Shown here: piece after piece, positions 27,255-32,545 of the stretch
Layout of the letters: each line of letters begins with the position of its first letter
How positions within the stretch are numbered: position 1 is the first letter of the stretch
DNA from: a virus
IMG/VR virus record: IMGVR_UViG_3300030451_003374
Span: 32,001-96,000 of that record
Reading direction: 5' to 3' (one strand)
DNA length: 64,000 nucleotides
Notes under the pieces: model-generated
What the model saw: only the letters and a program-made list of their open reading frames with translations
The model's database searches: none
Told to the model about the DNA's origin: nothing
Position numbers and translations under genes: made by a program

Positions 27255-27457
27255 CCCGTTCCTTCAGTCGTCTTTTGCGTCCTTAGTTTTGAAACACATA
27301 GGATTAGTATGTGCTACCACAACCCTTGTTATTTCTAATTGCTCAGATATATCAGGATTATTTCTTGCAGTGTCTATTAGTTCAGCAGCAGTCTCACAAT
27401 CAAGTGGTGCTCCAATCACTATTAAACTAAGAAGAAGTTGGTACATAAGGATGAACG
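27255..27457 (-). ncRNA. Glutamine riboswitch aptamer 2 (Downstream-peptide / glutamine-II type) with a ~180-nt insertion in the P2 loop
   Basis: 5' CGTTCATCCTT ... AAGGACGCAAAAGACGACTGAAGGAACGGGG; P1 CGTTC/GAACG, P2 TCCTT/AAGGA; directly upstream of DUF4278. Confidence 0.75.
27264..27446 (-). CDS. Small protein nested in the riboswitch (60 aa)
   Basis: MYQLLLSLIVIGAPLDCETAAELIDTARNNPDISEQLEITRVVVAHTNPMCFKTKDAKDD; ATG directly follows CGTTCATCCTT and the TGA lies in GACGACTGAAGG. Confidence 0.6.
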   Translation of the reverse strand: MYQLLLSLIVIGAPLDCETAAELIDTARNNPDISEQLEITRVVVAHTNPMCFKTKDAKDD

Positions 27458-27460
27458 ATT

Positions 27461-27507
27461 CCGTTCCGAGTCGGCTTACTTGCGTCCTGAATGTATCAGG
27501 ATGAACG
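27461..27507 (-). ncRNA. Glutamine riboswitch aptamer 1 (glnA / Downstream-peptide-like variant)
   Basis: CGTTCATCCTGA-tacat-TCAGGACGCAAGTAAGCCGACTCGGAACGG; P1 CGTTC/GAACG, P2 TCCTGA/TCAGGA. Confidence 0.7.
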
Positions 27508-27535
27508 TATTGGTATGCTAACATACCATCCATAT

Positions 27536-28666
27536 TTAGTCAACCCTTTTAGTATCAACGGATACATTTTTTCTTTTGACACCACAGTAATCCGAACATA
27601 TATGTGGTCTCTTATCCCATGACTCTACAAGTGTACACTGGAATAATGGGGTGTTCAATATCTCTTCAAGTGAATTATGTTTTAAAGATAAAGATTTCAA
27701 TCCACCCTGATTCTCTATGAGTGGAATCATACTATCGTAGAACACCTTCTGCATATACTCAGCACCCACACCTTTATTAGGATTCTTTATGTCCCTGTAG
27801 ATAGCAGGGGAATCTATATCACCATTGATATAGTAGTCAGGATAGAAGAAGCGTAGTCTACTCTGGTGGAAGCAGCAAGCATGAACAATACCACGACTGT
27901 CTATCCTAAGTTGACCTGGATTCTTTATACCATGACCATACCTACAGTCAATCTCTGTGTCCTCTGCTGCGGGTGGCTGCTGGAACACATGACCATCAAC
28001 ACCCTCTAGTTTATGTACCACTCCCCTGTATTCATATGTAAATGTACCATCTCCCTTACCACTAGCATCATATAGATCGTTTACATTAGTATGTCTGAAG
28101 TCTTTGAACCCCATCAGTCTACTAAGATTTCTACATCGTTTGATTTGATGTTGGTTGTGTTTGAATACTAGCATCCTCCAGACAGCAGGACCTCCTGCCT
28201 TTATAAATGCTCTAGCACTGTCTATAACTTTGTTATAATCTACACCTACTCTGTACTGTTGTAGAGTATCTGTCAAACCATCTATGGAAAAGATAAGAAA
28301 ACTATCTCTGTGTGATGATGCCATGAGAGCACCCAGTCTACCCCAGAACTCTTGGTCTCGTGTACCACCATTGGTACTCATCTGGAAGACTATACTACTG
28401 TTAGCATTGAGAGTGTAAGAATATATGTCTAACAAATCCTCATTCAATGAGGGTTCACCGAATGATCCTTGAAAATATATCAGTTCTGTCTTTCTAAGAG
28501 TCTCAATAGGAAACCATCTCTTCCAATCAGCGAGTGATATGGAAGAGCGATTCATAGATGGGTCTGGTTTCAAGACCGCTACCTCATCATTGTATGAGGT
28601 CTTATGTCTAGCACATAAAGGACACTTGGAGTTGCAATGATCGGTCAGATCAATTAGGAACTTCAC
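27536..28666 (-). CDS. Radical SAM protein with C-terminal Cys-rich (SPASM/twitch-like) region
   Basis: TDHCNSKCPLCAR, GSFGEP, STNGG, FSIDG, IDC...HACC...CSDYC. Confidence 0.85.
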   Translation of the reverse strand: MKFLIDLTDHCNSKCPLCARHKTSYNDEVAVLKPDPSMNRSSISLADWKRWFPIETLRKTELIYFQGSFGEPSLNEDLLDIYSYTLNANSSIVFQMSTNGGTRDQEFWGRLGALMASSHRDSFLIFSIDGLTDTLQQYRVGVDYNKVIDSARAFIKAGGPAVWRMLVFKHNQHQIKRCRNLSRLMGFKDFRHTNVNDLYDASGKGDGTFTYEYRGVVHKLEGVDGHVFQQPPAAEDTEIDCRYGHGIKNPGQLRIDSRGIVHACCFHQSRLRFFYPDYYINGDIDSPAIYRDIKNPNKGVGAEYMQKVFYDSMIPLIENQGGLKSLSLKHNSLEEILNTPLFQCTLVESWDKRPHICSDYCGVKRKNVSVDTKRVD

Positions 28667-30958: not shown

Positions 30959-30974
30959 ATGTTATAACGAAAAG

Positions 30975-31175
30975 GGGAAGGAAGGATTACTTATCGTACC
31001 GACATGAACAGGGAATCGCTAAAGCGAAAATTTGTACTGCTCAACTCAAGTTCCTCTGGTAAAGGTTCACCTCCTTTAGGGAGGGCGAGTACCACCTCTA
31101 ACTTGATGCATTACCCCGCCAAATTCCAACAGGGTTATTCTGCCACTTCCATGAGCGATGATCAGTCACTCATCT
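30975..31175 (-). ncRNA. Probable manA RNA motif
   Basis: GCAGAATAACCCTGTTGGAATTTGGCGGGGTAATG..AGAGGTGGTACTCG..CTTTACCAGAGG..GCAGTAC..AATCCTTCC resembles the cyanophage manA motif as recalled; own promoter upstream; not confirmed with Rfam. Confidence 0.65.
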
Positions 31176-31354: not shown

Positions 31355-32437
31355 CTAACCGACTGAAGGTGCAACAAGTGCAACAGTTGAAGACTCAGCA
31401 GAAGCAAGGTCTAGTGGGAAGTTGTGTGCATTTCTTTCATGCATTACTTCCATACCTAGGTTTGCTCTGTTTAGAACATCTCCCCATGTAGGAACGATCT
31501 TTCCGTTAGCATCAACTACAGACTGGTTAAAGTTGAAACCGTTGAGGTTGAATGCCATTGTACAGATTCCCATAGAGGTCAACCATACACATACAACTGG
31601 GAATGTTGCTAGGAAGAAGTGTAAACTTCTTGAGTTATTGAAAGAAGCATATTGGAATATGAGTCTTCCGAAGTAACCGTGTGCAGCAACGATGTTATAT
31701 GTTTCCTCTTCTTGTCCAAACTTATAACCATAGTTCTGTGACTCAGTTTCTGTAGTCTCTCTGATAAGAGAAGAAGTAACGAGTGAACCATGCATAGCAG
31801 AGAAGAGTGACCCTCCAAACATACCTGCTACTCCTGCCATATGGAAAGGATGCATCAAGATGTTATGTTCTGCTTGGAATACGAACATGAAGTTGAATGT
31901 ACCACTGATACCTAAAGGCATACCGTCTGAGAATGAACCCTGACCGAATGGGTATACAAGGAACACAGCGAAAGCAGCAGATACAGGAGCTGAGTATGCT
32001 ACGCAGATCCATGGTCTCATACCTAAACGATATGATAGTTCCCACTGTCTTCCCATGTATGCAGAGATACCAATTAGGAAGTGGAAGATTACCAACTGAT
32101 AAGGACCACCGTTATACAACCACTCATCTAGAGTAGCAGCTTCCCATATAGGGTAGAAGTGTAATCCAATAGCGTTGGATGATGGAACGACAGCACCAGA
32201 GATGATGTTGTTACCAAAGAGTAGAGATCCAGCAACTGGTTCTCTGATTCCGTCGATGTCGACAGGAGGTGCAGCGATGAATGCTACGATGAAACAAGCA
32301 GCAGCAGTTAGTAAGCATGGGATCATTAGAACACCAAACCAACCAACGTACAAGCGATTGTCAGTGGAGGTTACCCACTCACAAAACTCGTCCCATCCAG
32401 ATAGCAAACCACCACGCTTACGTGAAATAGTTGTCAT
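31355..32437 (-). CDS. psbA: Photosystem II D1 protein, Prochlorococcus type, uninterrupted
   Basis: [36 protein letters not shown]; GMFGG and [16 protein letters not shown] variants are Prochlorococcus-like; 360 aa, no intron. Confidence 0.99.
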
Positions 32438-32444
32438 TTGAAAA

Positions 32445-32545
32445 TGAGTGCGGGTATATGAAGGGTATAAAAAGACTTAATTTATTCTCCCTATAGGTCT
32501 TGGTTTGAGGGGAGCATGATAAGTGAGGAAATCCTCACTGGTTTA
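32445..32545 (-). ncRNA. psbA 5' leader, PhotoRC-II-like structured RNA
   Basis: 5' hairpin AGTGAGGA-tt-TCCTCACT then CTCCCCTCAAACCAAGACCTATAGGGAG..AGTCTT; position upstream of phage psbA is the known context of PhotoRC-II. Confidence 0.55.

Follow-up and report, generated by a model that had tools for sequence, protein, structure and literature searches.

Can an RNA sensor for a metabolite carry a complete protein-coding gene within one of its own hairpins, and what would follow for the sensor and for the gene? The leader of a DUF4278 gene in a marine cyanophage raises this question. It lies on the minus strand of a stretch of 64,000 nucleotides (IMG/VR record IMGVR_UViG_3300030451_003374, positions 32,001 to 96,000), the whole of which is called the window here. 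An earlier note, made from the sequence alone, had described in this leader a tandem glutamine riboswitch of two aptamer-like units, both starting with CGTTCA, with a 60-aa open reading frame (ORF) inside the P2 loop of the second. The two units are present at 27507-27255 and the ORF is a real coding gene, but the units are not self-contained riboswitches in series, as loop E is split between them and an inter-unit helix covaries. Our results suggest that the leader is one RNA device, in which two interlaced glutamine-binding cores gate the nested gene and the DUF4278 gene reciprocally. We hold this proposal tentatively, at somewhat less than an even chance. Riboswitch aptamers are regarded as compact non-coding domains, and surveys drop candidates with an ORF between their parts (PMC9481103).

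Similarity of the two units to glutamine aptamers

In the glutamine-II riboswitch structure, glutamine lies in the groove of the CGUUC:GAACG helix (P1), the CGC strand that follows the hairpin is located in the helix groove, and the G after GAACG forms a long-range pair; the glutamine-I pocket is virtually identical (PMC6698751). These ligand-contacting elements occur in both cores of the window, and the pocket elements were invariant in 25/25 aligned relatives. Each unit starts with CGUUCA, ends with GGAACGG, and aligns end to end with the Rfam Glutamine model (RF01739) below threshold. In E-value mode, unit 1 scored 32.4 bits (E 3.9e-6) against Glutamine-II (RF01704; gathering score 33) and 31.9 bits (E 5.5e-5) against RF01739 (gathering score 35). 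The Rfam search that the earlier note had proposed was positive for unit 1 below the gathering score, and negative for unit 2, which with its insert in place gave no match even in E-value mode. As a proxy for an insert-deleted unit 2, we used phage S-PM2, in which both hairpins are compact and whose unit 2 has the same flanks as that of the window; this unit scored 33.3 bits (E 1.7e-4) against RF01739. The RNA of the window is predicted to bind glutamine.

Interlacing of the two units

The AGUA half of loop E was found in unit 1 only and the GAAG half in unit 2 only. The Rfam alignments show unit 1 with GAAG deleted and unit 2 with a deletion of the GU from AGUA, so that a complete loop E is absent from each unit and is possible only between them. 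After its compact hairpin, unit 1 runs CGCAAGUA-AGCCGACU-CG-GAACG-G, and unit 2 begins 3 nt further. The strand after AGUA in unit 1 (AGCCGACU) is complementary to the strand before GAAG in unit 2, which is AGACGACU in the window, a variant present in 7 unique elements with its A at a mismatch position.

This inter-unit helix covaries. In a set of 161 unique elements, the terminal pair was U:A 135 times and A:U 16 times, and there was one exception. Perfect complementarity is also seen in a short form of the helix, as AGUCA/UGACU in 4 elements and AGUCG/CGACU in 2, and one element carries AGUCAACU/AGUUUACU as the helix strands; the short forms are unable to make a local P3 hairpin in unit 1. 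In an alignment of 25 compact elements, three pairs of the helix changed on both sides, and 92.9% of the cells were paired overall, compared with 31-53% when the partners were slid by 1-3 columns.

Formation of the inter-unit helix leaves one choice of partners for the P1 strands: the first GAACG must take the second CGUUC, and the last GAACG must take the first CGUUC. The spacer from the first GGAACGG to the second CGUUCA is 1-5 nt in the parsed loci, and the inner P1 appeared as a local hairpin in most minimum-free-energy folds of compact relatives. Both strands of the inner P1 are invariant (the CGUUCA of unit 1 in 25/25 aligned compact elements) and carry no covariation signal, and the covariation evidence on the strand partners comes from the shared helix alone. 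Of the covariation in P1 and P2 that the earlier note had looked to, the P1 half was accordingly uninformative, and the P2 half is described below.

Because loop E is split between the units and the helix between them covaries, two glutamine-aptamer cores appear to be interlaced, with one expression platform. The outer core would have a complete loop E and the inner core none, and both would lie at the ends of the shared helix. The nested ORF of the window sits in the P2 of the inner core (Table 1).

The P2 helix around the insert

P2 covaries across the insert. The arms that flank it occur as UCCUUA/UAAGGA, UCCUCA/UGAGGA, UCUAUG/CAUAGA, and UCAUCA/UGAUGA. Over 90 unique pairs of arms, contiguous pairing averaged 5.86 bp versus 3.49 bp with swapped partners, and the swapped mean reached at most 3.96 bp in 1000 shuffles. 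Duplexes between the two 30-nt ends of an insert averaged -16.3 kcal/mol, whereas swapping the partners gave -10.4 and internal segments gave -7.3, and this excess continued past the first 6 bp. In the 25-element alignment of compact forms, both-side changes were observed in 4/4 pairs of the outer P2 and 4/5 pairs of the second P2. The compact P2 reported for unit 1 (TCCTGA/TCAGGA) was recovered at 27501-27496 / 27490-27485.

The 3' arm of P2 has another possible partner in the window: UUCUUAGUUU (27433-27424, nested codons 5-8) forms 10 bp with AAACUAAGGA (27289-27280, including the P2 3' arm), and this pairing is stronger than P2 (-9.2 vs -6.4 kcal/mol). As a general feature such an alternative partner was rejected, with -7.02 kcal/mol against -6.86 for shuffled interiors (p 0.12).

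Recurrence of the nested layout

A scan of viral contigs with the 3' half of unit 2 yielded at least 120 loci, of which 115 were parsed; the counts of long inserts that follow refer to these. All four combinations were found, namely both hairpins compact, the first long, the second long (the window type), and both long, as in P-HM1, P-HM2, and MED4-213. Every P2 insert longer than 60 nt contained an ORF of 49-69 codons (141/141), which is far beyond chance. The nested ATG lay 3-7 nt after CGTTCA in 140 of these inserts and 14 nt after it in one. The earlier note had placed the ATG of the window immediately after TCCTT; the adjacency was correct, and the ATG shares its A with the longer arm TCCTTA. 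Of 89 unit-2 frames, 84 stopped in the core, at the TGA of GACTGAAGG, and of 52 unit-1 frames, 38 stopped in the core, at the TAA of CGCAAGTAAG. In agreement with the earlier description, the last residues and the stop of the window ORF are encoded by the conserved 3' core, with the TGA at 27266-27264.

Compact P2 loops vary from 11 to 31 nt in length, and both the compact and the nested form are found within groups of close relatives. The same layouts were observed in an independent sample of 80 loci found via the DUF4278 protein. Outside collections of viral contigs, the unit-junction pattern had 42 matches in the genomes of 185,579 species, about the chance expectation. Four of them were full elements, all on viral-looking contigs from single cells or metagenome-assembled genomes, and one of the four was on a 189,106-bp contig identical to an IMG/VR phage genome. 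Metatranscriptome contigs of relatives span the ORF, the core, and the DUF4278 start, and such contigs are silent on transcription, ends, and strand. Apparent "joints" of 166-177 nt in these contigs were considered as splicing and rejected, as they are relatives with a compact P2. One viral contig (L063) carries two separate double-core elements (~1007-1183 and ~1664-1803), each upstream of its own DUF4278 gene, one with a short perfect inter-unit helix and the other with a long one.

The nested gene and its protein

The insert is a real protein-coding gene under purifying selection, because its substitutions are of the coding type and its frame is open in 141/141 inserts. The ratio of nonsynonymous to synonymous differences (pN/pS), calculated for pairs of equal-length ORFs with at least 70% nucleotide identity and leaving out the first 4 and last 6 codons, was 0.21 for unit-1 ORFs and 0.30 for unit-2 ORFs. 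Most differences were at third codon positions in both units (positions 1/2/3: 1658/1066/4872 in unit-1 ORFs and 913/427/1579 in unit-2 ORFs). The codon-level conservation that the earlier note had named as a check was thus found.

The window ORF matches phrog_504 (E 2.9e-10, 40.7 bits), as does the nested ORF of P-SSM7 (E 1.8e-19), and the unit-1-type nested ORF is phrog_6471. The comparison of the two families (hhalign E 1.1e-4, probability 57%) is only suggestive of homology. The nested proteins have a hydrophobic N-terminus, two invariant cysteines (C17 and C51), and an invariant tail, D56-A57-K58/D60. The C-terminal tail is set by the RNA, being DAKAD in unit 2 (DAKDD in the window) and GRK in unit 1; at loci L045 and L094, a unit-1-type protein lies inside unit 2 and bears the DAKAD tail. 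The AlphaFold model is a two-helix hairpin with a disordered tail (predicted local distance difference test score, pLDDT, 75.5). The protein belongs to no Pfam family, has only unnamed viral clusters in the Atlas, and gave no Foldseek match in the PDB at E ≤0.001, and no link to nitrogen metabolism was seen in the Pfam, Atlas, and Foldseek searches.

Profiles of the two families trimmed of their tails were compared with 1.4 Mb of phage DNA, in which the complete genome of the window was included, and had 128 and 72 unique matches. By inspection every match lay between riboswitch halves and no free-standing homologue was present, which is a limited test, this DNA having been collected around riboswitches. 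A Shine-Dalgarno-like motif was found before none of the nested starts (0/181), and the nested ORF of the window has two Gln codons only.

Expression platform and the DUF4278 gene

Glutamine riboswitches are associated with DUF4278 genes and turn DUF4278/gifB expression on, and melting of a helix that masks the ribosome-binding site has been postulated for this switch (Klähn et al., PMC6212724). The gene downstream of the element was identified as DUF4278, as previously proposed (Table 1). A Shine-Dalgarno-like motif precedes 150 of 154 DUF4278 starts. A complement of CUGAAG, 6/6 with G:U allowed and located 15-17 nt before the DUF4278 AUG, was observed in 94 of 123 unique leaders, compared with 1.8% of shuffles. 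The one-sided leader variants CUUUAG, CUUUGG, CUUCAG, and UUUCAG all retain pairing with CUGAAG, and the anti-Shine-Dalgarno helix was present in most minimum-free-energy folds; the helix is deduced from this complementarity count and these folds. There is a single masking helix, i.e., one expression platform, per element. The nested UGA is part of the CUGAAG strand, and the DUF4278 AUG lies ~40 nt downstream of the nested stop. Where both units hold a nested ORF, gaps of ~30 and ~40 nt separate the three cistrons.

The beginning of the DUF4278 gene has a peculiarity of its own. GUC serves as the Val4 codon (27213-27211, minus strand) in 129 out of 152 unique relatives (85%), whereas it accounts for 17% of the Val codons in long ORFs of this genome. 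AGUC is complementary to the GACU of the shared-helix strands, and because of this an RNA-level constraint on the DUF4278 start region is possible. A pairing of AAGUAAG with DUF4278 codons 5-6, seen in minimum-free-energy folds, was dropped, as the Thr codon follows background usage (ACU 75, ACA 59). In some relatives (L009:5543-5638, L057:7144-7240, and others), the stretch from the last GGAACGG to the Shine-Dalgarno sequence contains an additional structured insert of ~30 nt, GGAACACGGAUCAC...GUUAAAGGUG.

Proposed mechanism

Our results establish the anatomy of the leader, the coding nature of the insert, the covariation of P2 and of the inter-unit helix, and the complementarity of the core to the Shine-Dalgarno region. 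In the proposed device, the outer core would be made of the first CGUUC paired with the last GAACG, the compact first hairpin as P2, and AGUA with GAAG as loop E. The inner core would be the local hairpin of the first GAACG and the second CGUUC, with its P2 closing around the 60-codon gene. The CUGAAG strand would contribute either to loop E, when the sensor is folded, or to the helix that masks the DUF4278 Shine-Dalgarno sequence, when it is unfolded. A ribosome initiating on the nested gene would cover one P2 arm. One terminating on it would cover the second P2 arm together with the shared helix and the strands of GAAG and of the outer P1. The folded sensor and translation would be mutually exclusive on one RNA, because the ribosome would occupy the P2 arms and the core strands; that a ribosome crossing the nested ORF unfolds the core is physically reasonable. 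The AND/NOT-type control of the DUF4278 gene that the earlier note had suggested is a hypothesis. In the presence of glutamine, the sensor would fold, the nested AUG, which lacks a Shine-Dalgarno sequence, would be hidden, and the DUF4278 ribosome-binding site would be freed. In its absence, a P2 over a 171-nt loop would be weak and the nested gene translatable, and the DUF4278 site would be masked except when a terminating ribosome opens it. We infer the sign of every one of these regulatory steps. It is possible, though less likely than not, that sensing and nested translation gate each other in full, with the nested protein made at low glutamine and the IF17-like protein at high glutamine, and that the leader is a natural strand-swapped double aptamer.

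Several points weigh against this proposal. At gathering thresholds, Rfam matched only the manA and PhotoRC-II RNAs in the window and no glutamine aptamer. Neither cmscan nor our own covariance model spans the 171-nt insert. This model (R1), built from 25 compact interlaced elements and run on the window, gave 31.5 bits for the 5' part with a spurious 3' completion and separately 10 bits for the 3' part, which is a technical limit. RNAalifold on 40 of the 3' leaders alone predicted only a small hairpin after GGAACGG and no anti-Shine-Dalgarno helix. The inner core, lacking loop E, may not bind glutamine at all. The hairpins of compact glutamine aptamers form without ligand (in-line probing cited in PMC6698751), and for this reason occlusion of the nested AUG may be independent of glutamine. 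Furthermore, the DUF4278 site would also be opened by the very ribosome that terminates in CUGAAG, which would blur the reciprocity. Finally, translation of the nested gene is itself a prediction.

Alternative explanations

The nested ORF may be a passenger for which the P2 loop is a tolerant site in a crowded genome, with the riboswitch acting on untranslated RNAs, the protein made from others, and their interplay unselected. The variable length of the loop even in compact forms, the occurrence of compact and nested forms side by side among close relatives, and a protein without a visible link to nitrogen metabolism agree with this idea. It remains rather unlikely in our view, as a passenger should have retained a ribosome-binding site of its own somewhere within the loop and should also turn up at other places, whereas none of the nested starts has a Shine-Dalgarno motif, no free-standing homologue was seen in the phage DNA collected around riboswitches, and the AUG lies within the stem, 3-7 nt after CGTTCA in 140/141 inserts, with the stop mostly in the core. 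Alternatively, the nested ORF might serve to bring a terminating ribosome to CUGAAG and melt the masking helix, the peptide being secondary; the DUF4278 gene would then be turned on by glutamine or by upstream translation. The nested stop inside the anti-Shine-Dalgarno strand in 84/89 unit-2 cases and the close spacing of the cistrons are what such coupling predicts. As the main purpose of the layout it is improbable, however, since purifying selection, two invariant cysteines, and a confident helical core indicate that the protein matters, and the stop of the unit-1 nested ORFs, in AGUAAG, is distant from the Shine-Dalgarno sequence.

Two self-contained aptamers in series, forming a pseudo-cooperative tandem whose second member merely has an insert, would account for the CGUUCA...GGAACGG frame of both units and for their full, sub-threshold alignment with RF01739, and the literature terms such RNAs tandem (PMC2864571, PMC9481103). 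We regard this as very unlikely: one half of loop E is missing from each unit, the inter-unit helix covaries (U:A to A:U; AGUCA/UGACU, AGUCG/CGACU), short forms are incapable of any local P3 hairpin in unit 1, and one expression platform only is present. A pseudo-cooperative tandem would consist of two complete riboswitches, each with its own platform, and this was not what we found. Least probable of all, to a degree that we scarcely credit it, is that an insertion destroyed the second aptamer, or that the insert is a non-coding RNA open by chance. Rfam fails to detect unit 2, as a relic would lead one to expect, but the core nucleotides are conserved around all 141 inserts, P2 covaries across the insert, and the frames are all open with coding-type substitution, by which this explanation is already contradicted.

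Comparison with known systems

The interlaced device that we favor shares with the glutamine-I riboswitch (RF01739; Synechocystis gifB/IF17 leader, PMC6212724) the CGUUC:GAACG helix, the hairpin after CGUUCA, the CGC strand, the AGUA/GAAG loop E, the G after GAACG, and a DUF4278 gene downstream. In both, the helix masking the ribosome-binding site uses the 3' side of the aptamer, predicting an ON switch. Unlike glutamine-I, no unit here is complete alone; the local P3 hairpin is replaced by the inter-unit helix and the cores would be interlaced, one of the P2 loops has 171 nt and codes for a protein, and the RNA scores below the Rfam gathering cut-off and is encoded on phage DNA. The binding-site nucleotides are also those of glutamine-II (the Downstream-peptide motif, RF01704, PMC6698751), to which unit 1 scores as given above. 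Glutamine-II accompanies short DUF4278 ORFs in marine picocyanobacteria, and there the ORF is downstream of the aptamer, whereas here it is inside. The glutamine-II crystal contains a strand-swapped dimer, and that RNA can be split into two strands that join via the CGUUC:GAACG helix (PMC6698751). This swap resembles the natural exchange of partners proposed here, except that here it would take place within one RNA and be fixed by a covarying helix.

Sherlock et al. (2022) reported tandem glutamine riboswitches, comprising 157 doublets and 4 triplets, in a survey restricted to tandems without an intervening ORF, in which each unit was treated as a complete riboswitch (PMC9481103). The present element likewise has two glutamine-aptamer units in one leader, but these have a helix in common and one expression platform between them, and one of the two contains an ORF. 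Control by leader peptides or upstream ORFs (uORFs) is similar in that a short leader ORF is present, and translation would remodel the RNA structure governing the next gene. It differs in that the nested product is a conserved protein of 50-69 aa under purifying selection without a regulatory codon run, and the structure disrupted would be a metabolite-binding aptamer. In an attenuating uORF one would expect regulatory codons that specify the sensed amino acid, and a product that is not a conserved protein; the reverse was observed here. McCown et al. (2017) described two glutamine aptamers in cyanophages and concluded that phages use riboswitches rarely (PMC5473149). We found no published account of the nested ORF or of interlacing, these RNAs being called tandem aptamers, in literature whose coverage excluded Ames and Breaker (2011) and Ren et al. 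(2015).

Well over 100 cyanophage loci with a putative glutamine sensor are overlooked by standard models, because the cores swap partners and a gene lies inside the hairpin; covariance-model scans should permit gene-sized inserts. A genomic context is also given to two viral dark-matter protein families, phrog_504 and phrog_6471. If the coupling is true, this would be a simple natural device that sets ligand sensing against translation on one RNA, through which ocean cyanophages could read the nitrogen status of their host. If the gating holds as well, it would be the first known riboswitch to enclose a protein-coding gene in its aptamer.

Layout of the locus

The features of the leader are listed in Table 1. 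The final codons of the nested ORF are UAAGGA, CGCAAA, AGACGACU, and the start of GAAG-GAACG-G. A small hairpin is located between the last GGAACGG and CUUUGG-AG, and thyX follows the DUF4278 gene. The element is single-copy in the 133-kb genome.

Table 1. Features of the DUF4278 leader and its flanks, in order of transcription (window numbering; all on the minus strand; core assignments are predicted)
Feature	Position	Remarks
Promoter-like motif CTAAATA	27539-27533	Sequence; overlaps TAA stop of upstream radical-SAM gene
TAA stop of radical-SAM/SPASM-like gene	27538-27536	Gene directly upstream of element
5' leader hairpin GGUAUG-UUAG-CAUACC	27527-27512	Sequence; between promoter-like motif and first CGUUCA
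Unit 1 CGUUCA	27507-27502	CGUUC is 5' strand of outer P1 (Rfam alignment)
Outer-core P2, compact hairpin UCCUGA-UACAU-UCAGGA	27501-27485	Arms as given in the text
Remainder of unit 1, CGCAAGTAAGCCGACTCGGAACGG	after P2, to 27461	Sequence
CGCAAGUA, CGC linking strand and AGUA half of loop E	27484-27477	Sequence, Rfam alignment
AGCCGACU, 5' strand of shared inter-unit helix (P3)	27476-27469	Pairs with 27273-27266
CG-GAACG-G-AAU-CGUUC-A, inner P1 as local hairpin	27468-27452	GAACG 27466-27462 with CGUUC 27457-27453
Unit 2 CGUUCA	27457-27452	Sequence
Inner-core P2 5' arm UCCUUA	27451-27446	Final A is A of nested AUG
Nested AUG	27446-27444	A common to P2 5' arm
Nested ORF, 60 codons and TGA	27446-27264	TGA at 27266-27264; family phrog_504
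Inner-core P2 3' arm UAAGGA	27285-27280	Followed by CGCAAAAGACGACTGAAGGAACGGGG to ~27254
CGCAAA, inner-core linking strand without AGUA	27279-27274	Sequence; alignment of homologous compact unit 2
AGACGACU, 3' strand of shared helix P3	27273-27266	Final U is U of nested stop codon
GAAG (loop E half), GAACG (3' strand of outer P1), and next G	27265-27256	Sequence
CUUUGG, complementary to CUGAAG (27267-27262)	27238-27233	Overlaps Shine-Dalgarno GGAG 27234-27231
DUF4278 (IF17-like) gene, 39 codons	27223-27104	PF14105 30.5 bits, cut-off 25.3

The CTAAATA that had been reported to overlap the stop of the upstream gene is present. It is promoter-like, and its position is conserved in relatives: of 154 unique elements, 151 have a TAAATA, TATATA, or TATAAT upstream of unit 1, and 46 have the full CTAAATA, which in 43 of these 46 lies 32-34 nt before CGTTCA. 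Upstream of the P2 AUG, the nested frame continues across unit 1 without a stop as far as an ATG at 27533, which would give 89 aa (27533-27264). This ATG is probably not used, because it overlaps the promoter-like motif; the corresponding frame is closed in P-SSM7, and relatives are annotated from the P2 AUG. The 5' leader hairpin has counterparts at the same place in relatives, with differing yet self-complementary sequences as judged by eye, and may be a 5'-end stabilizer or a component of the switch. A manA RNA (108.2 bits, 30971-31172, minus strand) and a PhotoRC-II RNA (40.3 bits, 32457-32526, minus strand) lie a few kb away, and both are typical for T4-like cyanophages.

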